34,687 nt of DNA from an uncultured Methanosarcinales archaeon (GCA_964535955.1 CAZHVK010000014.1:1-34687); one strand, 5' to 3'. Positions 3 through 34,687 are shown, counted from the stretch's first letter. Notes: generated by a model from the sequence alone, not told the origin. Numbers and translations are program-made.

Positions 3-467
3 ATAAGAAGGCAAAAAGAAGCAGAAGTTTTGTTTGAAGCAATGCATACTGGTCATAGTGTTTATGGTACAATACACGCAAATAATGCAAGAGAAACTGT
101 CATTAGATTAACAAATCCTCCTATTGATATTCCTAAATTAATGCTGCCTGCATTGAATTTGATTTTAGTACAGCATAGAAATCGGCGTACTGGTGCACGT
201 AGGTCATTACAGATTGCAGAGGTTTCTGAATCAGGTGATCCTAATGTTTTGATGCAGTTAGATATTCATAAAGATACTCTTCTTAATAAAAATAAGTCAA
301 AGTCTATGTTTGGAACTATTAATCTGTACACAGGAATGGAAGAAAAAGATATTAGTAAGGATTTAGTTAATAAAAGAATGATTTTGAAAGATTTAGTAAA
401 AAAGAATATTAATGATATTCATAAGATTGGTTTGATTTTTGCTAAGTATTATGCAGATAATAAGTAA
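3..467 (+). CDS. Type IV pilus/secretion ATPase (CpaF/TadA/VirB11/FlaI family), 3' fragment; gene begins upstream of window
   Basis: Frame open from nt 3 (IRRQKEAEVLFEAMHTGHSVYGTIHA..), i.e. the region after Walker B plus the His-box (TGH..T.HA) of VirB11-type ATPases; RLTNPPI motif; followed by two TadC-like genes. Confidence 0.92.
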   Translation: MRRQKEAEVLFEAMHTGHSVYGTIHANNARETVIRLTNPPIDIPKLMLPALNLILVQHRNRRTGARRSLQIAEVSESGDPNVLMQLDIHKDTLLNKNKSKSMFGTINLYTGMEEKDISKDLVNKRMILKDLVKKNINDIHKIGLIFAKYYADNK

Positions 468-497
468 ATAATAACATCAAAAGGGGGTGTAAATTAG

Positions 498-1295
498 TTG
501 AGTCAGCTAAGCAGTATAATAGAAAGAATCTTTCCTAAACTTGAACACCATCTTATCTCAGCTAGATTGCCTTATTCTGTAGAGGATTATTCTAAAAGAA
601 TTGTGACAGGTACTGTCTTTATCACAAGCGTGTTTACTTTTTTTAGTTTCATGGTTTTAGGTATTTTGATAGGCTTTCTTACTTTTTTTGCATCATTGGT
701 TGGAAGTTTTTGGTTTTTTGGAAATTATCCTAAAGCTACAATTAAAAAAAGGGAGAAATCAATCAATAGAAATATCTTGTTTGCAGGAAGATACTTATTA
801 ATTAAGCTAGAATCAGGAGCACCATTGTTCTTGTCAATGATTGGTGTTTCTAAGTCATATGGTGAAGCTGGAAAAGCATTTAATGATATTGTGCAAGATA
901 TTAATTTTGGAGCATCTATTGATGGTGCAATAGACAAGGCAATCAAATATAATCCTTGTAAAAATCTGACCAGAATATTATGGGAATTGTCTAATTCAAT
1001 AAAAACAGGAACAGATATAACAAAATCACTTAATGCAATACTTGAACAGATTAGTTCAGAATATATAATTGAAATCGAAAAGTATGGAAGAAAGTTAAAT
1101 TCATTGGTATTATTTTATCTTGTCATGGCAATCATATTTCCTTCATTAGGTTTGACAATGTTTGTTGTTATATCTAGTTTTATTAATGTTCAGATACCTG
1201 GATTTATGTTTTATGTTGTTGGTGCTATGTTAGTATCAATACAATTATTTTTTATTTCATTGTTTAAAGCAGCAAGGCCTGCTGTTAATCTGTGA
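498..1295 (+). CDS. Type II secretion system F-family / TadC-like pilus platform membrane protein
   Basis: TTG start with GGGGGTG SD; N- and C-terminal TM pairs around a soluble domain (LESGAPL..F..IV.DI..G.S...A), typical of T2SSF/TadC; adjacent to ATPase. Confidence 0.88.
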   Translation: MSQLSSIIERIFPKLEHHLISARLPYSVEDYSKRIVTGTVFITSVFTFFSFMVLGILIGFLTFFASLVGSFWFFGNYPKATIKKREKSINRNILFAGRYLLIKLESGAPLFLSMIGVSKSYGEAGKAFNDIVQDINFGASIDGAIDKAIKYNPCKNLTRILWELSNSIKTGTDITKSLNAILEQISSEYIIEIEKYGRKLNSLVLFYLVMAIIFPSLGLTMFVVISSFINVQIPGFMFYVVGAMLVSIQLFFISLFKAARPAVNL

Positions 1296-1300
1296 TTCAC

Positions 1301-2326
1301 ATGAGAAAAATAAAATTATTAGAAAATTTTGGAAAAGCATTTTTGCCAGAACGGTTTAGACCATTTATTAGAAAGTATTTGCAAAAATCTGGTTTTTATG
1401 AAATTCCTTATACTATGTTTGGTGCCTTGTTTTGGGTATCTTCAATTATTACTTTGGGATTGTTTATTTATTTGTGGCCTGTGTTAAGTAAGTTTGCAAA
1501 AAATCCTATTTTTATGTTTTTTACTGTATTTGTAGGCTGGTTTAGTATTCATCTTGTGATTGCATTGATTATAATAGCTCTTATTTATTTTTATTTTGAT
1601 TTTATGATCTATAACAGGACAAAAGATATTGAAAAGGTTCTGCCTGACTTTCTTAATGTATTTTCTGAAAACCTGAGAACAGGAATGACAACTGATAAAG
1701 CTTTGTGGAGAGCTGTTAAACCTGAGTTTGGTGTGCTGGCTTCTGAAGTAAGGATTGCTGCTAAACAAGTTTTAACTGGAAAAGATATTGATATAGCTTT
1801 GACTGAGTTTGCTGATAAATATAATTCTCCTACATTAAATAGATCATTAAAATTGATTATAGAAGGGATGAAGTCTGGTTCAGAGATTGCCATTATTATT
1901 GATAAAGTTGTTGATGATATCAATAAAACCTCTGTTCTAAAAAAGAGAATGGCTGCAAATGCTTTTACTTTTATGATCTTTATTTCGGTGATTGTAATTT
2001 TTATTGCACCTGGACTTTTTGCATTATCACAGAATTTGCTAACAATTATTTCTTCATTTGTTGAAAATCTGCAGGCAAGTAATCTTGCAGCTGTTAACAT
2101 GCCAATAAAATTTGATACTGTTGCAATGGAGCCAAAAGATTTTGAAAATTTTTCTAGATTTGCCTTAATTGTAATTGCATTTTTTTCATCATTGATTGTG
2201 TCTATAATCAGCAAAGGCGAAATAAAAGCTGGAATGAAGTATATTCCTTTGTTTGTTATCTGCTCTTTGTTAAGTCATCTGTTCTTTGTGACTGTTTTGT
2301 CATTTGTGTTTGGAGGTTTGTTTTAA
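1301..2326 (+). CDS. Second T2SSF-family / TadC(TadB)-like pilus platform membrane protein
   Basis: IEKVLPDFL...NLRTGMT..KAL...PEFGVLA.E motif of T2SSF domains, several TM helices; start may be GTG 1292 or ATG 1301. Confidence 0.9.
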   Translation: MRKIKLLENFGKAFLPERFRPFIRKYLQKSGFYEIPYTMFGALFWVSSIITLGLFIYLWPVLSKFAKNPIFMFFTVFVGWFSIHLVIALIIIALIYFYFDFMIYNRTKDIEKVLPDFLNVFSENLRTGMTTDKALWRAVKPEFGVLASEVRIAAKQVLTGKDIDIALTEFADKYNSPTLNRSLKLIIEGMKSGSEIAIIIDKVVDDINKTSVLKKRMAANAFTFMIFISVIVIFIAPGLFALSQNLLTIISSFVENLQASNLAAVNMPIKFDTVAMEPKDFENFSRFALIVIAFFSSLIVSIISKGEIKAGMKYIPLFVICSLLSHLFFVTVLSFVFGGLF

Positions 2327-2736
2327 TGAAGCGTGCACAAACATTATCAATGGACTTAATGGTAGGAATCATGATATTTGTAGGAATGTTGATTGTTTTT
2401 TTTGGAATAATGATGTTTGTTGCTAAGCCGCCTGATGTTTCTGATCTTAATTCTGAAGGAGAACATATTGTAAAGACTTTGGATTCTGTTGAAATGGGTG
2501 TGATAAAAGAGAATCAGATAGATGATAAAGAACTGCAGGAATTGGTTAGCAAGGATTATGACGAACTTAAGAATGAATTAGGTATAAGAAATGAATTTTG
2601 TATATTTTTAGAAGATGAAGAAGGTAATGTAATTCCAATTGAAACAAAGGATGGAAGACTTGTTGCTGGTGTTGGTGATTCAAATGTTGAGATTGGTGTT
2701 GGTGTTGGTGGGCAGCAAATGCTTTGTGGTAAATAA
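2326..2736 (+). CDS. Pilin-like protein with class III signal peptide (136 aa)
   Basis: MKRA|QTLSMD followed by a ~20-aa hydrophobic helix; TAATG stop/start overlap with the upstream gene. Confidence 0.8.
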   Translation: MKRAQTLSMDLMVGIMIFVGMLIVFFGIMMFVAKPPDVSDLNSEGEHIVKTLDSVEMGVIKENQIDDKELQELVSKDYDELKNELGIRNEFCIFLEDEEGNVIPIETKDGRLVAGVGDSNVEIGVGVGGQQMLCGK

Positions 2737-2760
2737 AATAATTAGAATCATAATTAAATC

Positions 2761-2996
2761 AATAAAATAAAATAAAATAAAATAAAATAAAATAAAATAA
2801 AATAAAATAAAATAANNNNNNNNNNNNNNNNNNNNNNNNNNNNNNNNNNNNNNNNNNNNNNNNNNNNNNNNNNNNNNNNNNNNNNNNNNNNNNNNNNNNN
2901 NNNNNNNNNNNNNNNAATAAAATAAAATAAAATAAAATAAAATAAAATAAAATAAAATAAAATAAAATAACAAAATAAAAATAAATAAAAAATAAA
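2761..2996. repeat. (AAAAT)n pentanucleotide microsatellite spanning a 100-N scaffold gap (2816-2915)
   Basis: 11 perfect units on each side of the gap (2761-2815, 2916-2970), degenerate units to ~2996; true length unknown. Confidence 0.95.
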
Positions 2997-3006
2997 GGTG
3001 GTATAA

Positions 3007-3963
3007 ATGAAAAATATAAAAATCATTGAAAAGATTGTCTTGTTTGTTTTAGTAATAATGATGTTGGGAGTGGTTGTGAGTGCATTTAGTGCTTCTGATC
3101 CATGGCATCCTTTGCAACAGATTGTGAGGACTGATGATAATAGTGTGTCTGTTGATGCTGATGGAGATGGTGTGATTGATAATGCTGCACATGCTGTTAC
3201 TGCTACAAGTGCTGAGACTGCTACTACAGCGACTACTGCTACTACTGCACAGAATGCTGTGAATTTAGGTGATGTTGCTGCTAATCTTTATGCAAAAGTT
3301 GCTAATTTGCCTTGGATAGTGTCTGGTGATAATGTTTATAGAAGTAGTGGGAATGTTGGTATTGGTACACCAAGTCCTAATACTAAACTTACTGTTAATG
3401 GTCCTGTTAGATTAATGCCTCAGTCTTCTGCAACATGTGATGCTAATCATGAAGGAACTATCTATTATGATGCTGAAGATGACATGGTATATGTGTGTAA
3501 AAATTCTGCTTGGACAGAGTTTAGGGGGCCACAAGGTGAGCAAGGTATACAAGGTATTCAAGGTCCAAAAGGTGATAAAGGAGATATTGGTGCGACAGGA
3601 GCAACTGGCCCTGCAGGTGCAACAGGTCCACAGGGTGCAAAAGGTGATAAAGGAGATAAAGGAGATACTGGTCCAGCAGGTGCAACTGGTGCAACAGGTC
3701 CGGCAGGTGCAACAGGCGCAACTGGTGGAACAGGTCCGCAAGGTCCACAAGGTCCAGCAGGAACAGTTTCAACTTGTTATTATAACAGTAAGTCTTACAC
3801 TGTTGGTGCTGTATGTAAATTAAATTGTAAAAGAACTTCTGGTACGATGTGTTATCCTGATTATTTTTATGAGTATCAGGTCTGTAGAAGTACTGGTTGG
3901 GATTCAGGATCTAGATGCGTGACTCAGTCATGTACTTACGATCCTCCAACATGTGGCTCCTGA
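3007..3963 (+). CDS. Secreted collagen-like fibre protein
   Basis: GGTGG SD; signal peptide; DADGDGVID loop; Ala/Thr run; [25 protein letters not shown] fibre motif; 27 uninterrupted G-X-Y triplets (3526-3768); Cys-rich C-terminal domain. Confidence 0.88.
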
Positions 3964-4069: not shown

Positions 4070-6019
4070 ATGAATACAAAAACATTGATAGGAATCTGGA
4101 TTATGATGTTTGTAGTATTGAGTGGTTCATTTGTTTATGCATATTGTGTAGATTCAGATGGAGGCATAGATTACTCTAAAAGAGGAACTGTGAATTATGA
4201 TTTAAGAAGAAAAACTAGAGATTGGTGCTGGCCGTCTGAAAAAAGAGGCAGGGAATTAAAAGAGAATTATTGTTATGGTGGCAAAATTAGAACTACTGGT
4301 GTTAAGTGCACTTGTAGAAATGGTGTTTGTGTTGGAGTTCCTCCATGCAGAGATACAGACAAAGGTTTTGATCATACTGTGAAGGGTGTAATTTATATCT
4401 CTGGAAAAGAAAAAAATGCTGATTATTGTTTAAGTAATGGTAAATTAATGGAATTACATTGTAGAGGATCAGGTTATTCTAAAGAAAATAAAAAAGGTGT
4501 CAATTGTCCTTCTGGAACAGAGTGTAGAGATGGTGCTTGTGTAAAAATAGTATTTGATTTTGATGAAGATGGTCATAATGCAGAGAAATATGGTGGAGAT
4601 GATTGTGATGATAATGATGCGAATATAAAACCAGGTGCAACAGAAGTGTGTGATGGTGTTGATAATAATTGTGTAGGAGGAATAGATGAAGGTTTTAAAG
4701 ATAATGGTTTAACATGTTCTGCAAATACTGAATGTTGTTCAGATATATGTGATGTTAATTGTTGTTCTATTGCTTGTACTGAAAATGATGGTGCTTATGG
4801 AGATTCTTGTAATGGTGGTGATATTAAAACAGAAATAAGAGATTATTTTTGTGATGGTCAAGGTGGATGCACTTTTACATCAAGTTATAATTTAAAGGAC
4901 AATAATCAAGAATATAATTGTGAAGATACTGCTATTGATAGTGATGAGAATAATGGTGATGATCATATTTATGATGTAGGTGGACAATGTACTGATAATG
5001 AACTTTGTTCTGGTAGTGATTCTGCTTGCCCCTCTGCTGTTGTAAAACATGATACTTGTTCTGGTGGTTTGATAGATGCATTTTTAGGAAATGAAGAATT
5101 AACAGAATGGTTTGTACAAGATAATGATTGTGTAAGTGAAACTATTATTTGTGATGCTGAATTAAATGGTTGTGATCCTAGTGCATGTCCTGGTGATGAT
5201 TGTGTGTATAAAGATTATTTTTGTCATGAAGATGATGTTACTGAGAATGATTATTGTGGATTTAATGCAATTGATGTTGATGATAATAATGCTGAATATT
5301 GTGGTCAATGTAATCTTAACAAGATCAAAAGTAATGAAAAATCTGCACATGGTGATTACTCTGCTGATGACATTAGTGACAAGGTTGAAGAATGTTGTGG
5401 TGATGATATTGGTGAATTCTTTTCACTAAATATCTGCGATGATACTCCTGACAATGTTTTTGCATGTTGTGATAAAGCAACTGATTATGTCTATAAAGAT
5501 GGAACATGTGTTGATACTTATGATGATTGTAATGCTAATCCTACTGTTATGAAAAAACTTACAGCACCTAAAAAAATTAAAGGTGGTTCTGTGATTAATA
5601 TAATTCCAGAGGAAGTGTCTGATTATGATAATGATATTTTATCTATTTATTGCGCAGTTGGAATCATGCCTGTTACTATCAGTGATGGAAATCTGGTTAT
5701 TAATGTTGATCTTAATTCTGAATCATATTGTTCTCAAACCAATGTGAAGGATTATAATAATTTAATTTGTGAAGGTTTACGCATTCCTGCAAATAATAAG
5801 ATGAATAAAGTAAAATGTAAAATCTATGATGGAAAAGAATTGTCAAAAGATCTTGATGTTTCTATTAAATCTGATTCAAGTCCTCCTGTTGTTAAGATTA
5901 TAAAAAAAGAACCTGTTGGTGTGAGAAAGTTTACATTTTATAAGAAAGGACAAAAAAAGAAACCTATTGCTACTTCCCTAAATAAAAAACAAACACAAAA
6001 TAATCAAAATGAAGATTAA
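4070..6019 (+). CDS. Secreted Cys/Asp-rich surface protein (MopE-like metal-binding motif; partial paralog of the downstream giant protein)
   Basis: GGTGA SD before ATG 4070 (ORF open from 4055); signal peptide ending VYA; C.D[ST]D.G.D....G repeats; DCDDNDANIKPGATEVCDGVDNNC motif; Lys-rich C-terminal tail. Confidence 0.85.
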   Translation: MNTKTLIGIWIMMFVVLSGSFVYAYCVDSDGGIDYSKRGTVNYDLRRKTRDWCWPSEKRGRELKENYCYGGKIRTTGVKCTCRNGVCVGVPPCRDTDKGFDHTVKGVIYISGKEKNADYCLSNGKLMELHCRGSGYSKENKKGVNCPSGTECRDGACVKIVFDFDEDGHNAEKYGGDDCDDNDANIKPGATEVCDGVDNNCVGGIDEGFKDNGLTCSANTECCSDICDVNCCSIACTENDGAYGDSCNGGDIKTEIRDYFCDGQGGCTFTSSYNLKDNNQEYNCEDTAIDSDENNGDDHIYDVGGQCTDNELCSGSDSACPSAVVKHDTCSGGLIDAFLGNEELTEWFVQDNDCVSETIICDAELNGCDPSACPGDDCVYKDYFCHEDDVTENDYCGFNAIDVDDNNAEYCGQCNLNKIKSNEKSAHGDYSADDISDKVEECCGDDIGEFFSLNICDDTPDNVFACCDKATDYVYKDGTCVDTYDDCNANPTVMKKLTAPKKIKGGSVINIIPEEVSDYDNDILSIYCAVGIMPVTISDGNLVINVDLNSESYCSQTNVKDYNNLICEGLRIPANNKMNKVKCKIYDGKELSKDLDVSIKSDSSPPVVKIIKKEPVGVRKFTFYKKGQKKKPIATSLNKKQTQNNQNED

Positions 6020-9000
6020 TAAAAAGATAGTATGGATGTGGATGGTGATTTTGGTAGTTTTGAGTGGGTTTGTTTTTACTATTACATCTGGCCAAGAATT
6101 TCAAGTGGATGAGTTTTCTGGTGGTGAATCTGACCCAGTTATTTGGATGGATTCAGATGGTAATTTTGTTGTTACATGGGTGAGTGATGATCAGGATGAT
6201 GATAAGTATGGTGTTTATTCAAAAAGATTTGATTCAAATGGTGGTGAACTATCACCTGGAACTAATATTATAATTGATAATCCTGAAACAGACCAAGCAA
6301 CCGGTAATGAGTTTAGAGTCAATACTCATCATAAATGGAATCAATGGTGGCCAGAAATTGCAATATCTTCAAATGGTAATTTTATTGTAGTTTTTCAAGG
6401 GCAGGATATTAATAGTGTTTACTCTACTGGTATTTCCTCGGGAATTCTTGCGAAAAGGTATGATTCTAATGGTCAAGAATTAACTCCTCCTTCTGGAATC
6501 ACATTATCTCCTGCTCCAAGCGGCACTGTAAACAATAATAAAGAGTTTGTAATTAATAGTTATACTTCTTATGACCAATTATTTCCAGATATTGCAATGG
6601 ATACGAATGGAAATTTTGTTGTTGTTTGGCAGAGTAATAGTCAGGATGGAGATTATACTGGTGTTTATGCAAAAAGGTATAATTCTAATGGACAAGAATT
6701 AAATCCAGGTTCAAATGCAATCACAAGTACTGCACAAGGCAAAGAATTTAGAGTTAATACTCAAAATACTAATGATCAAGAAAAACCAAAAATTGCAATG
6801 GCTCCTAATGGTGATTTTGTAATTGTTTGGGAAAGTTATAACCAGGACGGCGGTGGTGATGGGATTTATGCAAAAAGATATTATGCAGATGGTAGAGAAA
6901 AAACACCTCCTAGTGGTGTAACAAGAGGGGAAGGTAATGAATTCTTAGTTAATACAAAAACTTCTGGTAATCAAAGATCTCCTATTATTGGAATCGCACC
7001 AAATGGAGATTTTATCATTGTTTGGGATAATACTTATGCAAAAATGTATTATGCAGATGGTAGAGAAAAAACACCTCCTGCTGGTTCAGAAATTGTTCAA
7101 GGTAATGAGTTTAAATTATCAGCAAAGAAAATTGCATTTGATTCACAAGGTAATTTTATAACAATTTCAACTAAACTTTTTGACAAACCAACTGGAGGTC
7201 AGGCTCAGTATATAGTAGCGCAGAGGTATGATGCAAATGGAGATAAAGTTGGTGCAGAAATTAAAGTAAATAATGATCCTATCTCATGGAGTGCAACTGG
7301 TTGGGGTTTGGATGTTACTATGGAATCTCTTAATGATTTTACAATTGTTTGGGAATATCCTCAAGGTGGGATTTTTGTGAATAAATATGTTCTAAATCAA
7401 AACCCTGGCACTCCTTGTGGTGATGATATTGTATGTACATCAGGAATATGCGATGAACATTGTTGTTCATCAGAATGTCCTGAAGATGGATGGCATTGTG
7501 ATGGTGATTTTGCAGAACGAAGAGAATATTTTTGTGATTCATCAGGAGCGTGCGACTATACTTTTAGTAGTAGAACAGATTGTAATCAAAATGATCAAGC
7601 ATCTGGAGGTTATTTTTGTTCAGATGGAGATATAAAACAAAATTATAAAGATGGTTATTGTGATGATTCAATAAATTATTGTAAGACTCAAGATACTCAA
7701 ATACTTATTGATGATTGTGATTCTGATACTGCTACAGATACAGATAGTGGTAAAGATTATACAACTGGGGGATCTTGCATAAATAAAGAACCTTGTACTT
7801 ATCACACAACTTGTCCTAATCCTGTAACAACTCCTGATAATTGTATATCAACTAACACTCTTTATGAAAGGTTTGTTTTGAACAATGATTGTAGTTTTGA
7901 ATCTTTTCAATGTTCTACACTTAACAGTTGTTCTGGTGATTGTCCTGGATGTGTGTATAATGAGTATTCTTGTTTTAATACTAATGAAGATTATTGTAAA
8001 CCAGAAGCAAAAGATCCGGATACAGATTCTTCTTATTGTAATTCATGTTTAGGAGATAATAAGTGGGATGTGGGAGGAGATATCTCATCTGGGTGTTGTG
8101 GAGATGATTCTAGTGAATTTTATTCACCGAATAAATGTGATGGTGTTGGTGTTGATGTTAATGCTTGTTGTGATAATGAAAATGATTTTGTAAATAAAGA
8201 TGGCCAATGTGTTGAACAATGCTGTGAATGTGAAATAGATGGACAATGTCATCCAACAGAAACAGGTAAGAGATGTAATGGATGTGATTATATTGGTGTT
8301 AATGATATTCCTGTTGAATTGACATGTGATGGTATTGATGAAGATTGTGATGGTAATTTTGATGAAGGTGTTATAAATACTTATTATCAAGATAATGATG
8401 ATGATAATTATGGTGACCCTGTTGCAGATCCATTAACATCTTGCGGTGTTATACCTAGTTCTAGTTATTCACGAAATAATATGGATTGTAATGATGCTGA
8501 TGAAGACATCTACCCAAATGCACCTGAAGAATGTGATGGTAAGGATAATGATTGTAATTCAGAAACTCCTGACATATGTGCGCCTGAGATGGGCAGTGTG
8601 ATTATCCAAGAAGATGTTGATAAAGTAATTATCCTACAAGAGGATACTTTTAAAATATTGCCTGGTTCTAAAGTCACAATCATACCACAAGCTGTTGCTG
8701 ATAATAATGGTGATACATTGTCAATGTATTGTAAACTAGATGTTGATGGTGATTATGTGCCTGTTCCTGTAGATAAATGCTCTGGTGATGTTGCTTATTC
8801 TGAAACAGAGGGTTATTCTGATCTAGAATGTGTTGATTTTTCAATATCAGGTGATGATGGTAATCATGAACTAAGTTGTAAATTATATGATAATCAACTG
8901 TATTCTGAAACACAGACAGTATCAATCATAATTGATTCAGCGCAGCCAGAAATACAAGATTATGTATCTGCGCCAGATGGATTGACTGTGTCTAAATTAG

Positions 9001-12000
9001 TTAAGTTAGAAGATCCTGAAGAATTGGTTGACGATGTTTCTGGTGATCCTCCATTAGAAATCCCTTTAGAAACACAGATAAGTTTTACAATCACTACTGA
9101 TGAACCTTCAAGATGTAAATATGATACAGAGGATAAATCATATGAAGATATGAGAAACACATTAACAGCAACATTTGTAATGAGTCATACAAAGATCTTT
9201 AATTCACTGCTTTATGATCAGGATAATAATTTTTATATAAGATGTGAAGATGAGATTGGTAATTTTAATACTGTTTCTTATAAAGCTGTGATCAACCTTG
9301 GACCAGCACCAGAAGTAGTTGAACAAACATTGTTTTGTGAAATAGGTAGTTCTGTAGAAATTGGTACTGATTCTATTTCATTTGAGTTTACAACTGATGA
9401 AGATTCTATTTGTAAGTATAGTGATGATGAAAATAAAGATTATGATGATAATGAAATGATTGATATTGACGAGGATTATGTTACAGATCATACTATGCAA
9501 CTTGATAATCTTAAATATAATCTAAATTACAAATTCTATGTCAAATGTAAAGATGATGTTGGAAATATTAATATTGATCCATATATTGTTGAGATTGATC
9601 TTGGTGAAGATCCTGAAGGTCAAGGTATTAGTGTGTTCCATATATCTGATCTTGTGAATGCGCAGGCAGAGTTAGCTAGCGAACAAAATTATGATTGGCA
9701 TGTTTATTGTAGAAGCAAGGTTGGTGAACTTTCTATTGATTGTGCTGATCCTGAAATTGATCCTGAACAAATTGTTGTAAGATTGTCTGATACAACAAAT
9801 GCTCATGTTGAGCAAGGTGATCAGAATAATTATGCTAATGATGTTTGTCTGTCTAATACTGATGATAGTTATGAAGTTGATTGTATGTATTCACAAGCAC
9901 CTTGTGCTGAAGGATATACATGTGTTGCTTCTTTGTCAAGTGTGATAAGTGCTCATGTGTCTAGCTGTGCTGTTGCTGATAAATATTCTCATAATATTTG
10001 TTGTAAACAAAGGGAAGAGATTATTGATTGTAGTTTATTGACTGATAATGATGTTTGTGATACTTATTGTATTTATGAAGATCCTGAATGTGTGCATGAA
10101 CATCAATGGCCAATTGGAATTTATGAACCATATTGTTGTAATATAGGTGATGAAGTAAAGACAGGTGATGATTGTATGCCTGGTGGTGTTGCAGAGCCTC
10201 ATATCAATTGTGAAACAGAACAAGTGATGACTGATCCGCATTTACACACATTCGAGATACAGTTTGAACATATAATGATTGAATCTGGTACTATAAGTTG
10301 TGACATTGATACAAGGGATGGAAGTGATCTTTTAGTTCCATTGACTGTTTCAGAAGAATTTGATACAATGCCTGTAGATGGGAAAATTGAATTAAGTTAT
10401 ACTCTAAAAAACACAGACAACATAGACAGGACAAAGCCTTGGATAATAAAGTCTTGCTCAATTGAAACAGAAGATACAAGGTTTAAAGAAATGTTTGATG
10501 AAAAGTTTGCAGATCTTGATGAAAAAGTTTATGTGCATGGGAATACATGGACTGGGTTGATTAATACTGATGATGATGCGTACAGAGCATATTATTGTTA
10601 TTATAACACTCCTGGAAAATATTTTGATAATGATGTAAAATGTGATTGGGTGGGTGATTTAGTTTTTGCTAAAGCAAAAAGCAAGAAGTTTGGTGCTGTT
10701 GAAATAATCTGTGATGATGAAGTAGATAATGATGGAACAGGTGATGGTGCTGACTGTGCTGATTCTAATTGTCATGGAATAGCAGTCCCAATATGTCCAA
10801 TAGATGGTGATGGAAAAAATATTTATTCTAGTATTCATCCAAAGCTTTCTTCAGATTCAGATGATGAGATTACATTAAGTTCTGATTTTGCTGATGATAG
10901 TGACATGTTATCACTTGTAACTGGATTATTTTCAAAAGTAACTGGTGAAGCTGTTGCACCTATTGGTTCTGTTTGTAAAGGAAATATTTGTGAAGGTACT
11001 TTGTCTGATTCAAATATTAAAATTTGGTATACTCAACATGTTAATACTGTTAATGGAATATTTAAGATGAGGTTTGATTTAGGAATTGTTGATTCTGGTT
11101 CTGATACTAGTACTACGATTGGTAATCTTCCTTCTCCTCCTCAGCCTGTTTATGGTCTAGAGGTTGGTCCTTTAAAATATGGGTTGACTGGGAGAACAGA
11201 AAATCTTGATTCTTTTATAACAACTGCAAAAGTTGATGGACATGTTGATCAAGTAATGTCTGCATTATTTACAAGTGTTGCAGATGGTATAACAGTTGTT
11301 GATGCAAGTGCAATTGTTGGTGGTGATCCTATTCAAGATAAAGAAAACATAAAGTTTTATGCTGATACTAGTGCTCCTGTTAATAATGATGAATCTGATT
11401 CTAATGTCTATTCAGACCCTGTTGACAATGATTATTATCTGTATGGAACGATTGGTGATGATGGTGATAATATAGGGCAGAATCAAAATAATCCTTGTAA
11501 TGATGGTATTGATAATGATTTAGATTACAAACCTGATTGTAAAGATCCTAATTGTTATGGCGAAGTTATTGGAAAGACAGCTGAAATAATTGGTGGTGAA
11601 ATAACATTGCATGATGATATAAAATGTGAAGCAGCAGAAACAACTTGTTGGGATGGTTATGATAATGATCATGATGGTTTGGTTGATTGTGCTGATGAAG
11701 ATTGTGATGGAAAGATTGGTGCTTATGTTTATAATAATATTCCTCAGAAATTTAAAAAGACTGGTTATGATTCTGTTGTTGTTTGTGAAAAACCAGAAGG
11801 AAGTAATAATGATAAAGAGACTGCACCTTATTATGATGAAGGAATATTGGATAGTGATACAAGGTTAGGTAGTTGTTCTGATAAGTTTGATAATGATGCT
11901 GATAATAATCCTTGGAATGAAATAACTTGTGAAGATGTTGATGAATGTATAGAACGAAACATTGATTGTTATGATCTATTTAGTTGTTGGGGTAAGGGCG

Positions 12001-15000
12001 ATGATAGTGCTCCATGTCCTCTAAAAGAAACAATCTGTGATGATGGTGTTGATAATGATTTTGATTATAGAATAGGTACTGGTGCTGTAAGGTTTGGTAG
12101 TGCAGATAATTGGTTAGGTATTGATAATTATAAACCATATGGATTTGGACCATTTAGTATATACTTTACTGGAACTGATAATGGTGCTGATTGTTTTGAT
12201 TATGATTGTAAAGGAAAAGGTAGTTGTCCTCTTACTGAATCTGTTGATCATGCTAATTGTTTTGATGGGTATGATAATGATCTTGATGCTTATGTGTGGA
12301 GTGATACTGATAATAATTATGTCAAGAATCCTGATTCAAAAGCTGGTATTGATTGCCAAGATTTTGATTGTCTGAATGTTGAAAATCCTAATAAGCCAGG
12401 TGAAAAATGTTATCCATCTGAATTTAATTTGTTTGCATGGGATGTATGTAAAGATGGTGTTGATAATGATTATGATGATTTACCAAATAATGATGGGAGT
12501 AAGACAGATGGTAGAGATAATATTAATGAAGGTGTAGAAGGTGCTGGTGTAGATTGTTATCATAGAACAGATTATTGTGGTGTTCCTGGTTATCCTGGAT
12601 TGTCTGTTCATGAAAATATAAATGTGTTTGCATGTGCTGATAAAAGTGCTAGTGGTAATGATATTGATAATGATTTAATTGATGGTGCTAATTGTGCTGA
12701 TCATGGTGATTGTGATAATATGTTGGGTAGTTATTCTGGTGCAAGATGTGTTGCTGATGGTGATGAAACAGGTGGTTATTGTGGTGATGGTTTAGATAAT
12801 GATGCTGATGGTAAAACTGATTGTGAAGATGCAGATTGTCATAATGATGCTGATGATAAAGGGTCAAGAGGACAAACTTGTGTTTTAAATGAAGCTAGTG
12901 ATACTTATTGTTCAGATGGTTATGATAATGATGCTGATGGTCATGTTGATTGTCTTGATATTGATTGTTATGCTGTATTTGTGTGTGATAGTGAAAAAGA
13001 TTGGAGTAATGCTGATTGTTTAAGTGTTCCTTATGTTGTGAATGGTGATGTTGGTGTTGGTGGTTCTGTCTCATTTAATCATCAAGAAAGATTGCACATG
13101 GATGATAATTATGCACTTAGTCTGTCTGGTTCAAAAGCACCTAATAATTATGATGAATTGACAATCTTTGTAGGAGAAAATGATGTTGCATGGGGTAAAA
13201 GGTTTCCTTATGATACAAGTACATGTAGTTTACAAGGAACTAATGCTGATTATTTTATATTTACTAAGGAAACTTATATGCTTGCTTTAGAAAAAGTATC
13301 TAGTGCAAGTTTTGATTCATTTGATGTTGAGATTGTTTGCACTGGTATTGATCAAGTTACTGAAGAAAGGTCATATGTTGTTGATGTGAGTGCAACTTCT
13401 ATGATTGGGTTAATTGAAGAAGCTGAATCAAAAAGTGTTGAGTTAAAAACACAAGTCTATGAAAACACACCACCAATTATCTCTGACATACATGTTAGTG
13501 GTTTAGATATTGCAACAAATACTGTTGAATTAGTGTATGAAGATAAGTTAGAATTTAGAGGCTTGCCTAATGCTGATGGATCAGGAATCTGTGGTTGTGA
13601 ATTTACTGGTGATATAACAGAAGATGATACTGGTGTTCCTACAGGTGGTAATTGCATAACTTCTATGGAGATAACAAAAGATTATCCTGCTGGTATTCTT
13701 CCTGATGGAGAATTTAAGATCAATGCAAGAGCAACAGACGGTGCTGGTAATATTGGTGGATTAAAAGAAAAATCATTTAATATAATTGTCAAGCCAAAAG
13801 AAATAACAGAGAATTATGAATTAGGTAGAATATTTTATAATTCTGCTGATTATACTAATGTTGATGTTGGTGAGTTTAAATTTATAACAGCAACAAATAG
13901 AGAATTTAAACCTGATTGTAAGTTTAATATTAAAAAACCTGATGGAACACTAGTAAAAACATATGATGAAACAGGAACAGTTACAAATAATGAACTTAGT
14001 TGTACTAAAACTTTGGATTTGGTTGATGTTGGTGTTGCTGCACAAGATGGTATGTATTTAGTAAATGTTGAGGTAAGTGATAAAGATAAACCAGAATTCA
14101 TAATTAATTCAAAACCAAAGATCTTCTTTGTGTGTAATAATGAAAATAGTAAAGATGAAGAAAATGGACTTTGGGATTGTCAATATCTTGACATGGACAA
14201 TGATGGTGTGCCTGAAGGATTGACTACAACTATTTATGATCCTGATGGTGTTATAGAATTACCATGTGATAATTGTCCTGAAGATCCTAATCCTGAGCAA
14301 GGTGATTGGAATGCAAATGGTTTGGGTGATGTTTGTGATTGTGGATATGACAATATAGCAACTGACGGAGAATGTGATGAAGCTTGTGAAGCTTATGATC
14401 CTGACTGTGGTTGTCATGTTGAAGAAGAACCTTGTTATGAAGGTTATGATTTAAAGTGTCCGGGACCAGATTCAACTGTAGAAGAAGGCTGCTCATCAGA
14501 ACTTATTTGTAATTCTGATGGCATATGCGATTCTAATCAAAAAGAAACATGTGCTTGTGTTGATTGTTATACTAAAGCTAATCCAGATGATCATTTACCT
14601 AATGATGCATGTGTAAAAGGATTGGTTTGTAATCCTATCCTCATTGGTGAATGTATGTGTGATTCTATTTCAGATGGTTTTTGTCCAACAAATACAAAAG
14701 ATTTTGAATATTGTAGTACAATTCCTGATGGTGAAACTTTACCACGTGATCCTGATTGTTTAATAAAACCAGTTAGAATAATATATCCTGGTGGTGATCC
14801 TGATAAAGAAGATATTGTTACAGGCCCTGACAAAGTAATAATTCATTGGGCAAAAGATGTGCAAGATCTTGATCATAAGATTTATTTTGATCTTGATTAT
14901 ACTGATAATGCAGGTTCTGAAGATGAATGGCATGAAATAGTAAATGGTGCTGAAGCTGTTCCTGCAACTAAAAGAGATGATGATAATTATATTTATTATG

Positions 15001-15944
15001 AACTTGATATTTCAGATCCAACTAAGTTTCCTAATCTTAATAAAAAATATCAAATCAAGATTACACCTAGGTTAATGTCAGGTGATACTGTTCTTCAGTC
15101 TGGGAATGAGATAAAATCTGCTGTGTTTAGTATTTGTAGGCTGGAGGATTCAAAGATTAGGGTAAAAGTATTAGATAGACTTGATAATGATAAACTTCTT
15201 GTTGGAGCCAATGTTAAAATAATAAGTGAAAAAGATCCAACAAATATTGTTGAAGGTGATATAAGGGCTAGTGATACTGGTGGAAGATTATTTGAAGGAC
15301 TTAATCCTAAAGAAAATTATAATATAGAAGTTACACCTCCTGGTACTCCTACTTATACTAATTACCAAAAACAGTCTAGAACAATAACAACAGAATATTG
15401 TAAAGAAAATTTACCAATATTTAAATTAGATAAATGTGGTGATGGAACTTGTGTTAAGGCTGAAGGTGAATATTGTACTAATTGTGAAGATTGTGATTGT
15501 GTAGTAGATGAATCACAAGATCAATATTGTGATCCAGGAGACCTAACTGTTAGTCCTCCTGTTGTTCCTTCTTGTAAAGATAAACCTAGTGGACCATGCC
15601 CTATTGGTATTAATTATTGTTGGGGTAGTACTGGTGAGTGCGATGCTTCAGAAGGTTGTTGTTGTGAAGATTGTTATGATAAAGGATTAGTTAATAAGCC
15701 ATGGAAATTTTGTGATTATGATGAAGAAACAGATACTGTAGAAGAAATTTGTGCATGTTATCTAGATTGTGATTCAGTAGCTAATGATAATTTAAAAACA
15801 GAATGTGAAAATTGTCAACAAGGTTGTGCTCAATCACAAGAAGCAAAGATCAATGTTGATCTGGCTGAAAACATAATAACAACTACAAAGATTGTTACAT
15901 ATAAAGGAAAACCAGTAAAAATGAAGATTGTTGTCTGGAATTAA
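6009..15944 (+). CDS. Giant (3311 aa) secreted Cys/Asp-rich mosaic adhesin-like protein
   Basis: Uninterrupted 9.9-kb ORF; signal peptide; N-terminal EF.VN...Q..P.IAM..NG.F.VVW repeats; MopE-like motif; two TTDE.S.CKY Ig-like repeats; three S....AH/NAQ repeats; many C.DG.DND.D...DC.D.DC repeats; TSP3-like CDNCP..NP.Q.D.N.NG.GDVCD; carboxypeptidase-regulatory-like domain; no C-terminal TM helix. Confidence 0.92.
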   Translation: MKINKKIVWMWMVILVVLSGFVFTITSGQEFQVDEFSGGESDPVIWMDSDGNFVVTWVSDDQDDDKYGVYSKRFDSNGGELSPGTNIIIDNPETDQATGNEFRVNTHHKWNQWWPEIAISSNGNFIVVFQGQDINSVYSTGISSGILAKRYDSNGQELTPPSGITLSPAPSGTVNNNKEFVINSYTSYDQLFPDIAMDTNGNFVVVWQSNSQDGDYTGVYAKRYNSNGQELNPGSNAITSTAQGKEFRVNTQNTNDQEKPKIAMAPNGDFVIVWESYNQDGGGDGIYAKRYYADGREKTPPSGVTRGEGNEFLVNTKTSGNQRSPIIGIAPNGDFIIVWDNTYAKMYYADGREKTPPAGSEIVQGNEFKLSAKKIAFDSQGNFITISTKLFDKPTGGQAQYIVAQRYDANGDKVGAEIKVNNDPISWSATGWGLDVTMESLNDFTIVWEYPQGGIFVNKYVLNQNPGTPCGDDIVCTSGICDEHCCSSECPEDGWHCDGDFAERREYFCDSSGACDYTFSSRTDCNQNDQASGGYFCSDGDIKQNYKDGYCDDSINYCKTQDTQILIDDCDSDTATDTDSGKDYTTGGSCINKEPCTYHTTCPNPVTTPDNCISTNTLYERFVLNNDCSFESFQCSTLNSCSGDCPGCVYNEYSCFNTNEDYCKPEAKDPDTDSSYCNSCLGDNKWDVGGDISSGCCGDDSSEFYSPNKCDGVGVDVNACCDNENDFVNKDGQCVEQCCECEIDGQCHPTETGKRCNGCDYIGVNDIPVELTCDGIDEDCDGNFDEGVINTYYQDNDDDNYGDPVADPLTSCGVIPSSSYSRNNMDCNDADEDIYPNAPEECDGKDNDCNSETPDICAPEMGSVIIQEDVDKVIILQEDTFKILPGSKVTIIPQAVADNNGDTLSMYCKLDVDGDYVPVPVDKCSGDVAYSETEGYSDLECVDFSISGDDGNHELSCKLYDNQLYSETQTVSIIIDSAQPEIQDYVSAPDGLTVSKLVKLEDPEELVDDVSGDPPLEIPLETQISFTITTDEPSRCKYDTEDKSYEDMRNTLTATFVMSHTKIFNSLLYDQDNNFYIRCEDEIGNFNTVSYKAVINLGPAPEVVEQTLFCEIGSSVEIGTDSISFEFTTDEDSICKYSDDENKDYDDNEMIDIDEDYVTDHTMQLDNLKYNLNYKFYVKCKDDVGNINIDPYIVEIDLGEDPEGQGISVFHISDLVNAQAELASEQNYDWHVYCRSKVGELSIDCADPEIDPEQIVVRLSDTTNAHVEQGDQNNYANDVCLSNTDDSYEVDCMYSQAPCAEGYTCVASLSSVISAHVSSCAVADKYSHNICCKQREEIIDCSLLTDNDVCDTYCIYEDPECVHEHQWPIGIYEPYCCNIGDEVKTGDDCMPGGVAEPHINCETEQVMTDPHLHTFEIQFEHIMIESGTISCDIDTRDGSDLLVPLTVSEEFDTMPVDGKIELSYTLKNTDNIDRTKPWIIKSCSIETEDTRFKEMFDEKFADLDEKVYVHGNTWTGLINTDDDAYRAYYCYYNTPGKYFDNDVKCDWVGDLVFAKAKSKKFGAVEIICDDEVDNDGTGDGADCADSNCHGIAVPICPIDGDGKNIYSSIHPKLSSDSDDEITLSSDFADDSDMLSLVTGLFSKVTGEAVAPIGSVCKGNICEGTLSDSNIKIWYTQHVNTVNGIFKMRFDLGIVDSGSDTSTTIGNLPSPPQPVYGLEVGPLKYGLTGRTENLDSFITTAKVDGHVDQVMSALFTSVADGITVVDASAIVGGDPIQDKENIKFYADTSAPVNNDESDSNVYSDPVDNDYYLYGTIGDDGDNIGQNQNNPCNDGIDNDLDYKPDCKDPNCYGEVIGKTAEIIGGEITLHDDIKCEAAETTCWDGYDNDHDGLVDCADEDCDGKIGAYVYNNIPQKFKKTGYDSVVVCEKPEGSNNDKETAPYYDEGILDSDTRLGSCSDKFDNDADNNPWNEITCEDVDECIERNIDCYDLFSCWGKGDDSAPCPLKETICDDGVDNDFDYRIGTGAVRFGSADNWLGIDNYKPYGFGPFSIYFTGTDNGADCFDYDCKGKGSCPLTESVDHANCFDGYDNDLDAYVWSDTDNNYVKNPDSKAGIDCQDFDCLNVENPNKPGEKCYPSEFNLFAWDVCKDGVDNDYDDLPNNDGSKTDGRDNINEGVEGAGVDCYHRTDYCGVPGYPGLSVHENINVFACADKSASGNDIDNDLIDGANCADHGDCDNMLGSYSGARCVADGDETGGYCGDGLDNDADGKTDCEDADCHNDADDKGSRGQTCVLNEASDTYCSDGYDNDADGHVDCLDIDCYAVFVCDSEKDWSNADCLSVPYVVNGDVGVGGSVSFNHQERLHMDDNYALSLSGSKAPNNYDELTIFVGENDVAWGKRFPYDTSTCSLQGTNADYFIFTKETYMLALEKVSSASFDSFDVEIVCTGIDQVTEERSYVVDVSATSMIGLIEEAESKSVELKTQVYENTPPIISDIHVSGLDIATNTVELVYEDKLEFRGLPNADGSGICGCEFTGDITEDDTGVPTGGNCITSMEITKDYPAGILPDGEFKINARATDGAGNIGGLKEKSFNIIVKPKEITENYELGRIFYNSADYTNVDVGEFKFITATNREFKPDCKFNIKKPDGTLVKTYDETGTVTNNELSCTKTLDLVDVGVAAQDGMYLVNVEVSDKDKPEFIINSKPKIFFVCNNENSKDEENGLWDCQYLDMDNDGVPEGLTTTIYDPDGVIELPCDNCPEDPNPEQGDWNANGLGDVCDCGYDNIATDGECDEACEAYDPDCGCHVEEEPCYEGYDLKCPGPDSTVEEGCSSELICNSDGICDSNQKETCACVDCYTKANPDDHLPNDACVKGLVCNPILIGECMCDSISDGFCPTNTKDFEYCSTIPDGETLPRDPDCLIKPVRIIYPGGDPDKEDIVTGPDKVIIHWAKDVQDLDHKIYFDLDYTDNAGSEDEWHEIVNGAEAVPATKRDDDNYIYYELDISDPTKFPNLNKKYQIKITPRLMSGDTVLQSGNEIKSAVFSICRLEDSKIRVKVLDRLDNDKLLVGANVKIISEKDPTNIVEGDIRASDTGGRLFEGLNPKENYNIEVTPPGTPTYTNYQKQSRTITTEYCKENLPIFKLDKCGDGTCVKAEGEYCTNCEDCDCVVDESQDQYCDPGDLTVSPPVVPSCKDKPSGPCPIGINYCWGSTGECDASEGCCCEDCYDKGLVNKPWKFCDYDEETDTVEEICACYLDCDSVANDNLKTECENCQQGCAQSQEAKINVDLAENIITTTKIVTYKGKPVKMKIVVWN

Positions 15945-19038: not shown

Positions 19039-19147
19039 ACAATCTATCACACCAAAACCTTTATATATGCAGTGCCTCATAATTATATTATAATTAAATA
19101 ATTATATAAATAAATTATATGAAAAACAAACAAAAGAGGTGCATACA

Positions 19148-20446
19148 ATGTTAGATTATATTGATCTTAAATATAAACCAAATTCTAAAGACCTAGTTGC
19201 AGAATATTATGCAGAACCTGCAAGAGGAATGACATTAAAGAAAACTTGCCAGCACTTGGCAGGAGAATCATCTATAGGTACTTGGACAACTATTTCTTTA
19301 TTAAATAAAAAGATTGCAAAAAGATTAAAACCACATGTGTATTATATTAATCCATTGACAAAATTTGTTAAGATTGCTTATCCATATGAATTGTTTGAAG
19401 CAGGAAACATGCCACAAATCTGGTCAAGCATAGCAGGAAACATATTTGGAATGAAAGCTGTTAAAAATCTGAGATTAATGGATATACATTTTCCAAAGAT
19501 TATCATGAACAAGTTCAAAGGACCTAGGTATGGTGTTAAAGGAATTAGAAAATTATTAAAAATAAGAAAAAGGCCTTTGACAGGAACAATTGTTAAACCT
19601 AAAGTGGGTCTGACAGAAGCACAGCACGCAAAAGTTGCATATGAATCATGGCGCGGTGGTCTTGATGTTGTAAAAGATGATGAAAACCTGTCATCAATGA
19701 CTTTTAATAAATTCAGAAAAAGGGTTAAGTTAACATTAAAACTAAGAGACAAAGCAGAGCATGAGACAGGTGAAAAAAAAATGTATATGGCAAATGTGAC
19801 TGCTGAGACAGATGAGATGAAGAAAAGAGTTGACTATATAAAAAAACATGGTGGAGAATATTTTATGCTTGATATATTGACAATTGGTTGGTCTGGTGTG
19901 CAAACAATGAGAGATTATAATCAGAGAAAGAACATGGTAATACATGCGCATAGAGCAATGCATGGTGCTTTAACAAGAAATCCTAAACATGGAATCTCAA
20001 TGATGACAATTGCAAAATGTGCAAGATTGATCGGTGTTGATCAGTTACACATTGGAGCAATTGTTGGAAAAATGCAAGGTGGTGCAAAAGAAGTTCATAA
20101 TATTGGTGAAGAAATTGAAGAACAAATTATTGGTAAGAGGTCTGAATCAAATCATATGCTTGAACAACATTGGTTTGGTAAAAAGCCTGTGTTTGCTGTA
20201 TGCTCTGGTGGTGTATATCCAGGTGTCATCCCACCTTTGATAAAAATCATGGGCAATAATATTATTATACAAGCAGGTGGTGGTTGTCATGGACATCCAG
20301 ATGGTACTCGTGCTGGTGCAAAAGCAATAAGGCAGGCTGTTGACACTGCTATGCATGGAAAGACTCTTCATGAATGTTCTAAACAGTTTCCTGAGCTGAA
20401 GAAGGCTGTGAAATTATGGGGAGTGCCTAAGAAGAGGAAATATTAG
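19148..20446 (+). CDS. rbcL: RuBisCO large subunit, archaeal form III / III-like (probably nucleoside salvage)
   Basis: GAGGTG SD; catalytic motifs AGESSIGTW, GNIFG, GTIVKPKVGL, DVVKDDEN, HAHRAMH, DQLHIG..GKM, SGG, QAGGG all present. Confidence 0.95.
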   Translation: MLDYIDLKYKPNSKDLVAEYYAEPARGMTLKKTCQHLAGESSIGTWTTISLLNKKIAKRLKPHVYYINPLTKFVKIAYPYELFEAGNMPQIWSSIAGNIFGMKAVKNLRLMDIHFPKIIMNKFKGPRYGVKGIRKLLKIRKRPLTGTIVKPKVGLTEAQHAKVAYESWRGGLDVVKDDENLSSMTFNKFRKRVKLTLKLRDKAEHETGEKKMYMANVTAETDEMKKRVDYIKKHGGEYFMLDILTIGWSGVQTMRDYNQRKNMVIHAHRAMHGALTRNPKHGISMMTIAKCARLIGVDQLHIGAIVGKMQGGAKEVHNIGEEIEEQIIGKRSESNHMLEQHWFGKKPVFAVCSGGVYPGVIPPLIKIMGNNIIIQAGGGCHGHPDGTRAGAKAIRQAVDTAMHGKTLHECSKQFPELKKAVKLWGVPKKRKY

Positions 20447-33519: not shown

Positions 33520-34247
33520 ATTCCCGTTGATCCTGCGGGAGGCTGCTGCTATCAGGGTTCGATTTAACCATGCAAGTCAAGGGGTCCTTCGGGACACCGG
33601 CAGAATGCTCAGTAACACGTCAATAATCTAACCTTAGGTCCTGGATAACCTTGGTAAACTGAGGCTAATATAGGATATAAGATAAATTCTGGAATGAATA
33701 TCTTTTAAAAGTAATGCCTAAGGATGAGTTGGCGGCTGATTAGGTAGTTGGTGGGGTAAAGGCCCACCAAGCTTACGATCAGTAGGGGCCTTGAGAGAGG
33801 GAGCCCCGAGAAGGGCACTGAGACACTTGCCCTAGCCCTACGGGGTGCAGCAGGTGCGAAACCTTTACAATGCACGAAAGTGTGATAAGGGAACCCTGAG
33901 TGCCTATACTTAGTATAGGCTTTTACTAAAGGTAAATACTTTAGTGAATAAGCGGTGGGTAAGACTGGTGCCAGCCGCCGCGGTAACACCAGCGCCGCTA
34001 GTGGGAGCCGCGTTTATTGGGCCTAAAGCGTCCGTAGCTGGATGAGTAAATTTTTTGTGAAATTGTCAAGCTTAACTTGACAGCGCGCAGAAAACACTTC
34101 TTATCTTGGAACCGGAAGGAGTCAGAAGTATGCGAGGGGGAGCGGTAAAATGCTATAATCCTTTGTAGACTACCTGTGGCGAAGGCGTCTGACTAGTACG
34201 GGTTCGACAGTGAGGGACGAAAGCTAGGGGAGCGAACCGGATTAGAT

Positions 34248-34354
34248 ACGAGAAATCATGTCTGATTTCTGGATTTGGCTTTGTAAAAGATTCGTTAAAT
34301 CTGCTAAATTACGAGCGAAACAGAAGTTGCTATATGATGATTTACTCGCTAACT
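34248..34354 (+). other. 16S rRNA intron 1 (107 nt, bulge-helix-bulge junction, after E. coli position ~793)
   Basis: Central helix TTAG(34242-45)/CTAA(34349-52), 3-nt bulges AT|A and CT|A, intron stem CGAGAAATCAT/ATGATTT(A)CTCG; splicing restores GGATTAGATACCC. Confidence 0.93.
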
Positions 34355-34473
34355 ACCCGAGTAGTCCTAGCTGTAAACTCTGCGAGCAAGGTGTTACATA
34401 TCTTACGTGGATATGTAGTGTCGAAGCGAAGGCGTTAAGCTCGCCGCCTGGGAAGTACGGTCGCAAGGCTGAA

Positions 34474-34520
34474 ATTATTTCGACTGGGAGTCTCAAAATC
34501 TCCTGATCAATAATCAGTAG
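34474..34520 (+). other. 16S rRNA intron 2 (47 nt hairpin, relaxed BHB/BHL junction, after E. coli position ~908)
   Basis: Central helix GCTG(34468-71)/CAGT(34515-18), bulges AA|A and AG|A, exon helix AAG/CTT, intron stems TTATT/AATAA and GGGAG/CTCCT; splicing restores GCTGAAACTTAAAGG. Confidence 0.9.
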
Positions 34521-34687
34521 ACTTAAAGGAATTGGCGGGGGAGCGCCACAAGGGGTGCGGCGTGCGGTTTAATCTAATTACACACAGAGAATCTCACCAG
34601 GGGCGACGGCAGGATGAAAGTCAGGTTGAAGGCCTTACTTGACGAGCCGAGAGGTAGTGCATGGCCGTCGTCAGCTCGTGCCGCGAG

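Follow-up and report, generated by a model that had tools for sequence, protein, structure and literature searches.

The window, that is, the whole stretch of DNA analysed (34,687 nt), ends within an archaeal 16S rRNA gene. The gene matches Rfam RF01959 with 926.5 bits (E 1.2e-272) at model positions 1-1020 of 1478, so that its 5′ two-thirds are present before it is truncated by the window end. When 34150..34687 was aligned to the archaeal consensus by cmscan, two inserts were observed. The first has 108 bases against one model position directly after GGAUUAGAUA, and the other comprises 47 bases between GCUGAAA and CUUAAAGGAAUUGGCGG. E. coli numbering was calibrated on K-12 rrsH, in which GGATTAGATACCC starts at gene position 785, and the junction of the first insert is therefore U793|A794, within the 790 loop (helix 24). 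This loop is a subunit-interface and P-site element that faces the large subunit. The original prediction had placed a 107-nt ORF-less BHB intron in the 790 loop of a DPANN 16S rRNA gene, and the rrsH-based numbering confirms that location. The features of the locus are listed in Table 1.

Table 1. Features of the 16S rRNA gene and its inserts in the window
Feature	Position	Strand	Basis
16S rRNA gene, partial, archaeal	33520..34687	+	Rfam RF01959
Probable BHB intron, 107 nt, E. coli 793/794 (790 loop, helix 24)	34248..34354	+	cmscan insert, cut-site reading, numbering, 109 related inserts
Exon-side helix h, 5′ strand, pairs with 34357-34359	34238..34240	+	sequence; A1 columns 8-10 with 214-216 100% paired
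Central 4-bp helix H, exon strand UUAG, pairs with 34349-34352	34242..34245	+	99.8% of cells paired, 109 distinct sequences
Central helix H, intron strand CUAA	34349..34352	+	sequence; pair counts
5′ bulge AUA, 3 nt; predicted cut after 34247	34246..34248	+	geometry; canonical EndA position
3′ bulge CUA, 3 nt; predicted cut after 34354	34353..34355	+	sequence; canonical position, inferred
h′ (34249-52) and P1 extension, 5′ strand; pairs with 34337-34343 and 34345-34348, A34344 bulged	34249..34259	+	constrained fold; pair counts
Rod helix P2, 5′ strand; pairs with 34321-34328	34264..34271	+	constrained fold; pair counts
Rod helix P3, 5′ strand; pairs with 34309-34316; encloses terminal hairpin 34288-92/34298-34302	34278..34286	+	constrained fold; pair counts
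Second BHB-like intron, 47 nt, E. coli 908/909	34474..34520	+	cmscan insert; pair counts; numbering

The ends of the first insert can be folded with the flanking exons into a BHB motif. Its two 3-nt bulges lie on opposite strands, exactly four base pairs (UUAG/CUAA) apart. Beyond the 5′ bulge follows the intron-side helix h′, in which CGAG (34249-52) is paired with CUCG (34345-48). On the exon side, the motif is closed by helix h, which is the natural terminus of helix 24 and has the pairs C34238-G34359, G34239-C34358 and G34240-C34357. Between h and H, A34241 (A787) faces C34356 (C795), and the exon side of the motif is slightly relaxed. The canonical cut of EndA is after the second base of each bulge. 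Cuts at these positions would excise 107 nt and join GGATTAGAT to ACCCGAG. The restored junction, GGATTAGAT followed by ACCC, agrees base for base with both the Rfam consensus and the motif at E. coli 785-797, and in spliced RNA the two exons are predicted to meet as GGAUUAGAU followed by ACCC. The motif, the cut rule, the exact restoration of the exon and the A787.C795 apposition had all been described beforehand and proved correct on direct reading of the sequence. In mononucleotide shuffles of the insert, assessed in fixed register, all four H pairs together with all four h′ pairs occurred in 233 of 200,000 cases (0.12%).

Relatives were collected by scanning species-representative genomes for 71-131 bases of any sequence between GGATTAGAT and ACCCNNGTAGTCCNNGC, with no requirement for a BHB; this pattern detects only insert-bearing genes, with inserts 71-131 nt long. 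The scan resulted in 112 loci. Three were set aside as artefacts (L029, L060 and L080, which are tandem duplications or runs of N in contigs titled as bacteria), leaving 109 real inserts of 71-130 nt. The contig titles are nearly all Woesearchaeota, Nanoarchaeota/Nanoarchaeia, Aenigmatarchaeota, Micrarchaeota or unclassified archaea. With the window included, the 110 inserts have a median length of 103.5 nt and a mean G+C content of 34%. The lengths touch the lower bound of the scan, with inserts of 71 and 72 nt in Aenigmatarchaeota, and introns at 793 shorter than 71 nt probably exist outside the scan range.

All 110 sequences, window included, were aligned (alignment A1, 109 distinct rows). 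Both exon flanks are invariant in 110 of 110 sequences. Both H and h′ have four of four pairs in 102 sequences; seven more have 4/4 in H with 3/4 in h′, and one has 3/4 in H with 4/4 in h′. Counted over the cells of A1, H is paired in 99.8% and h′ in 98.4%, whereas sliding the partners by 1-3 columns as a control lowered pairing to 22-50%. Each of the four h′ pairs shows changes on both sides that compensate each other, the first pair being UA in 51, CG in 47, GC in 9 and AU in 2 rows. The observed covariation score was matched by none of 500 shuffles. Together with the motif geometry and the exact exon restoration, the compensatory h′ changes over 109 distinct sequences bear out the claim that the insert is a BHB intron. 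One might suspect an artefact of assembly or binning, or an insertion that resembles a BHB by chance, as rRNA assemblies from metagenomes are prone to chimeras, one relative (L111) is a mosaic with respect to the window and three of the 112 scan loci were indeed artefacts. However, the insert stands at exactly the same site, with compensatory changes, in 109 independent assemblies from many projects, and the motif test was passed by very few shuffled inserts (0.12%), so that we give such an origin practically no credence.

The junction can also be paired in a shifted register that is free of bulges, and this register is preferred by thermodynamic folding and by RNAalifold. It pairs only 85.9% of the cells, and it leaves the conservation of CUAA on the intron side unexplained, where the C is nearly invariant and the A invariant. 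Only the BHB register explains these bases, which identifies the BHB as the conserved feature. When a 137-nt piece of the window was folded in isolation, the prediction did not favour the BHB (-27.3 kcal/mol for the BHB-constrained fold versus -30.2 kcal/mol for the MFE), and the piece as a whole has no unusual stability (z = -1.2). In the ensemble, H has a probability of 0.02 for the window and of 0.43 on average over the 110 sequences. Enforcing the BHB costs a median of 1.9 kcal/mol over the unconstrained optimum; the cost is at most 2 kcal/mol in 69 of the 110 sequences and above 4 kcal/mol in 13.

With the BHB enforced, the folds of all 110 sequences have one unbranched architecture in common. 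In it, h′ is prolonged into P1, a stem of 11 bp in which one A is bulged, and beyond an internal loop come P2, a further loop, P3 and a small terminal hairpin. When 36 close relatives were aligned with MAFFT and folded with RNAalifold, P1 was obtained with the junction register shifted, and P2 and P3 were missing; a covariance model was therefore built from 10 seeds with the enforced-BHB structure. The model was run on 100 sources (L103-L112 omitted) and recovered the insert in 100 of 100, and the resulting alignment also contains two low-score reverse-strand matches. In this alignment, which is fitted to the model and leans towards it, the P1 extension is paired in 88.1%, P2 in 86.2% and P3 in 86.6% of cells, compared with 34-51% when the rod helices were slid. 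Changes on both sides were observed in 25 of 25 rod pairs of the same model-fitted alignment, including all seven modelled pairs of P2 and all eleven of P3. Sequence conservation in the interior is almost nil, and a conserved interior sequence motif was rejected, with a single interior column reaching at least 80% identity in 100 sequences. The only function of the rod is most likely to keep the intron self-folded and the BHB held against competing rRNA folds.

The fold of the relatives differs in part from the one proposed for the window, which was branched; the relatives favour an unbranched rod. One of the two interior helices put forward, TTCTG/CAGAA, is real and conserved, and corresponds to P2. 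The other, GGATTTGGC/GTTAAATCT, is complementary but absent from the constrained folds of the relatives, which have other pairing instead, and it was not retained. Two further candidates within the interior were rejected. A K-turn or L7Ae site between P2 and P3, scanned for as tandem sheared G.A pairs beside a 3-nt loop between two stems, is matched in 21 of 110 introns, compared with a mean of 7.8 and a maximum of 14 in shuffled sequences; the window has no match. The bases of ATGATGA and CTGA, which could be read as C/D boxes, belong to the P1 stem and lack conservation among the relatives, and the corresponding Rfam matches are at chance level.

A self-contained rod of this kind could protrude from the loop, and DPANN rRNAs have been little studied; both points would allow the insert to persist in mature rRNA, where it would form an expansion segment specific to the lineage. 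A retained hairpin, however, needs neither 3-nt bulges four pairs apart nor an invariant pairing of CUAA with the exon. The exon flanks in the 790 loop are invariant in 110 of 110 sequences, and a rod of 107 nt would be expected to clash there. Furthermore, the insert varies freely in length (71-130 nt) and in sequence, with the one interior column of at least 80% identity mentioned above. We thus consider retention of the insert very unlikely, and an intron that is removed remains the favoured explanation.

The original prediction further proposed a hairpin that competes with the BHB stem as a possible folding switch. The hairpin, formed by AGAAATCA and TGATTTCT, is present in the window and would tie up the 5′ strand of P1 and h′. 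In the relatives, 66.9% of cells allow the equivalent pairing, versus 59.5 ± 1.1% for shuffled and 35-56% for slid controls, and the rod helices reach 86-88%. When the 5′ half was folded alone, at least seven of the 11 bases concerned were paired in 67 of 110 introns, with a mean of 6.5 paired bases versus 4.3 after the downstream part had been shuffled, and in 87 of 110 introns the 5′ half was more stable than its own shuffles. Much of this signal arises because A-rich strands face U-rich strands. The hairpin thus exists and is weakly conserved, but the small excess over shuffled sequences does not carry the switch. A transient co-transcriptional 5′ hairpin is plausible in view of these folds, and a selected folding switch is a possibility.

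The insert had been predicted to lack an ORF and to be too short for a group I intron, and both statements hold. The sole ORF that overlaps it (82 aa, 34258..34506) continues into exon sequence and is without a match in Pfam at E<=1, and no ORF for a LAGLIDADG homing endonuclease was found in the 107-nt intron. No Rfam intron family was detected in the window at the gathering threshold, nor on the insert at E<=10, RF00028 included. RF00028 does match in one of the relatives, L028, where a group I intron lies in the 23S rRNA gene (732..1012, -, 72.5 bits). The rRNA operon of this contig carries two intron types, the group I intron in the 23S gene and the BHB intron at 793.

We conclude that 34248..34354 is very probably an ORF-less BHB intron in the 790 loop of a DPANN 16S rRNA of the Woesearchaeota/Nanoarchaeota group, which would be spliced by EndA and RtcB. 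The roles of the two enzymes, the circularisation and the timing are inferred by analogy with known archaeal splicing. Before splicing, UUAG, the four loop bases at the end of exon 1, would pair in the pre-rRNA with CUAA near the 3′ end of the intron. The intron ends would pair with each other, with h′ extended to the 11-bp stem and continued by the rod of P2 and P3. In this fold the two 3-nt bulges would be presented on opposite strands, four base pairs apart, and the tRNA-splicing endonuclease EndA would cut after the second base of each. Finally, the RtcB ligase would join the exons, which would restore the loop, and would circularise the intron.

Intron-bearing tRNA genes also occur among the relatives of the window. 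In L019, a tRNA gene of 101 nt (2722..2822, -) has an insert of 25-26 nt after anticodon-loop position 37, and L062 contains a tRNA gene of 130 nt (5531..5660, -). Both genes match the whole 71-position tRNA model; they were detected by Rfam and missed by ARAGORN in bacterial mode. As relatives carry tRNA introns (L019), the lineage can be taken to splice. EndA variants, including loop-bearing alpha4 forms, are described for several DPANN lineages in the accessible part of PMC5829648, and the available text of PMC12918454 reports both EndA and RtcB in the archaeal genomes surveyed there.

Cleavage at the BHB might also take place with no re-joining of the exons, and the mature 16S rRNA would then consist of two pieces (about 750 and 700 nt) held in the ribosome. 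Some bacteria have fragmented rRNAs that arise from excised intervening sequences, and a two-piece 16S rRNA would resemble these. The BHB evidence shows a conserved cleavage substrate only and is silent on ligation. Moreover, no EndA or RtcB gene was detected within the 34.7-kb window by Pfam searches of its 23 ORFs, and the lack of an RtcB gene among them would be in keeping with two pieces. On the other hand, RtcB ligates BHB cleavage products in the archaea studied, according to the accessible sections of PMC4496867 and PMC12918454. A permanent nick would lie inside the 9-nt 790 loop, at the P site and subunit interface, where it is less likely to be tolerated, and the exact restoration of the loop along with the invariant exon flanks (110/110) fits selection on a re-joined loop. 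Two separate pieces therefore seem improbable to us, and we prefer excision followed by ligation.

To examine the lineage of the host, about 400 exon bases of each of 105 sequences were used for a quick maximum-likelihood tree, which is weakly resolved (27 of 102 inner branches starred). On this tree the window groups with contigs titled Woesearchaeota or Nanoarchaeota, in agreement with the predicted DPANN origin of the gene. Its nearest relative is L110, with 93% identity over 409 columns, and the two are paired with 99% SH-aLRT support. Three groups can be distinguished: 88 sequences of Woese- and Nanoarchaeota, with introns mostly of 86-130 nt; 11 sequences mostly titled Aenigmatarchaeota, with short introns of mostly 71-91 nt; and six titled Micrarchaeota. 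Exon and intron distances are correlated (Spearman 0.31 for 95 sequences), and none of 500 permutations gave a value as high. The class of the h′ tetranucleotide changes 59 times on the exon tree (105 sequences), compared with at least 67 times in 200 shuffles. These comparisons suggest, though not decisively, that the 793 intron descended mostly vertically, and transfer may have played a part as well.

Some contigs stand out by their composition or by their titles. The 16S gene of L111 (1..733) is a mosaic relative to 33940..34687 of the window, with 202 of 259 identical positions in the 5′ exon, 107 of 107 in the first intron and 166 of 167 in the distal 3′ exon. This may reflect either a chimeric metagenome co-assembly or recombination or co-conversion around the intron. 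The contigs L028 (titled ‘Aminicenantes bacterium’) and L065 (‘Yanofskybacteria bacterium’) carry archaeal SSU and LSU rRNA genes in addition to the 793 intron, and both therefore look misbinned. L086, which is titled ‘bacterium’, was placed among the Aenigmatarchaeota on the exon tree, and several contigs titled ‘uncultured Methanosarcinales’ were placed among the Woesearchaeota.

A more far-reaching proposal is that the 793 intron is an old family, mostly inherited in three DPANN phyla, which has been kept for a reason. Until its removal, the intron would lock the 790 loop into a pairing that is inactive, and splicing could thereby act as a late licensing step in the assembly of the small subunit. 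The frequent 5′ hairpin would, under such a scheme, delay formation of the BHB until the 3′ half has been transcribed. Alternatively, the circular product, a rod of about 100 nt, would have a role of its own. We regard this proposal as a whole as rather doubtful.

The closest known counterparts are the archaeal 16S introns analysed by Jay & Inskeep 2015. As given in the accessible text of that study (PMC4496867), they are confined to 13 loci (374, 548, 722, 781, 803, 901, 908, 919, 978, 1093, 1205, 1213 and 1391) in Thermoproteales, Desulfurococcales and Aigarchaeota; 793 is not among these loci, the nearest of which are 781 and 803. As in those introns, a BHB core lies at the junctions of the 793 intron, the most conserved parts of the 16S rRNA and its universal primer sites are interrupted, and removal by EndA and RtcB is presumed. 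The second intron of the window is located at their locus 908. The hosts are different, namely thermophilic TACK archaea in the published cases and DPANN at 793. According to the same part of PMC4496867, many of the published introns encode LAGLIDADG homing endonucleases or are hairpins of less than 50 nt, whereas the 793 family is ORF-less, measures 71-130 nt and forms a rod of three helices. The archaeal pre-tRNA introns at the canonical position 37/38, a kind that is also found in L019, share the two 3-nt bulges, the 4-bp helix and the cuts after the second bulge base. They differ from the 793 intron in that the host gene of the latter is an rRNA gene, it is several times longer and its exon-side helix opens with an A.C apposition.

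Insertions in DPANN rRNA genes have been reported before. In Micrarchaeota ARMAN-2 and ARM-1, the 16S rRNA gene likewise contains an insertion, for which the authors call splicing unproven (Sakai et al. 2022, PMC8784108). This insertion differs from the present one in its length of 522 bp, its location at E. coli 1093 and its coding capacity for a hypothetical protein. The accessible text of the same paper, which deals with a cultivated DPANN archaeon, names 16S insertions for Crenarchaeota, Aigarchaeota and Micrarchaeota only and contains no site in the 790 loop. Nawrocki et al. 2018 (PMC6125680) describe DPANN rRNA genes as intron-rich, with group I introns and co-occurring BHB introns, as far as the available portion of the article goes. 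It counts 36 group I introns for LSU genes and three for SSU genes, two of them at SSU/1498 among the table rows shown, and its Figure 1 marks BHB introns. In the accessible part of He et al. 2021 (PMC7906910), ‘intron-containing 16S rRNA genes’ of CPR and DPANN are mentioned in one sentence, and insertions of at least 10 bp were stripped before analysis. The same loop is a recurrent intron site in another domain, since eukaryotic nuclear group I introns occur at SSU S788 (PMC8395846, accessible sections). Those are self-splicing ribozymes of several hundred nucleotides, inserted five bases upstream of the 793 junction; the 793 intron, by contrast, has no ribozyme core, and its removal presumably depends on a protein enzyme. 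In the full-text literature, a body that mostly excludes subscription papers and supplements, no account was found of a BHB intron at 793 or in a Woesearchaeotal 16S gene. The 793 site, the DPANN host clade and the breadth of its occurrence thus appear to be undescribed, while the mechanism is already known and an earlier mention is possible.

The 793 intron is mainly relevant to primer bias and to the evolution of introns in reduced genomes. Position 793/794 is in the middle of the binding site of the primers 785F, 805R and 806R, which are widely used and named by E. coli coordinates. Because the intron splits this site, amplicon surveys with 785F, 805R or 806R should fail on such genes. The insert is carried by at least 109 species-level genomes of DPANN archaea, which are tiny symbionts, and it offers a concrete cause for part of the known under-detection of DPANN. 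As a 14th BHB site in 16S rRNA, beyond the 13 published, 793 widens the host range of BHB rRNA introns beyond thermophilic TACK archaea, adding three DPANN phyla. An ORF-less intron whose fold is kept while its sequence drifts would also be a clean system in which to study constraints beyond the splice motif.

The second, 47-nt insert of the window has a BHB-like structure as well. H is formed by GCUG (34468-71) and CAGU (34515-18), and h by AAG and CUU. The 5′ bulge, AA(A) at 34472-74, has two A's or three, depending on whether A34474 is paired with U34514; the 3′ bulge is AGA (34519-21). The cuts would give GCUGAA followed by ACUUAAAGG, which corresponds to E. coli 908|909 and to the published locus 908. 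Among the 110 sequences, an insert at this site is present in nine and absent from 72, and the site is unreadable in 29. All nine inserts have four of four H pairs, in four sequence types, and three of three h pairs. L062 and L071 have homologous copies of the window's 908 intron; the inserts that L008, L021, L076, L077, L083 and L090 carry at this site are unrelated. L110 and L111 lack the 908 intron despite a distal 3′ exon that is 95-99% identical, which argues for a recent gain or loss.

Among the other genes of the window, Pfam identified a RuBisCO large chain, an ABCE1-like and a GlmS-like protein, a member of the phosphoglucomutase family, a GCD14-type tRNA methyltransferase and a CCA-adding enzyme. 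This set fits an archaeon and is uninformative on splicing. The RuBisCO large-chain homologue (19139..20446, +) matches PF00016 (E 1e-90) and PF02788; in this small-genome archaeon it is probably of the nucleotide-salvage type. An ORF of 3311 aa (6009..15944, +) is rich in cysteine and aspartate. It adjoins genes for a type II/IV secretion-like ATPase and membrane proteins (3..2326) and an ORF with collagen repeats (3007..3963), the Pfam assignments being those of the neighbours only. The 3311-aa ORF may encode a giant surface protein as in episymbiotic archaea.
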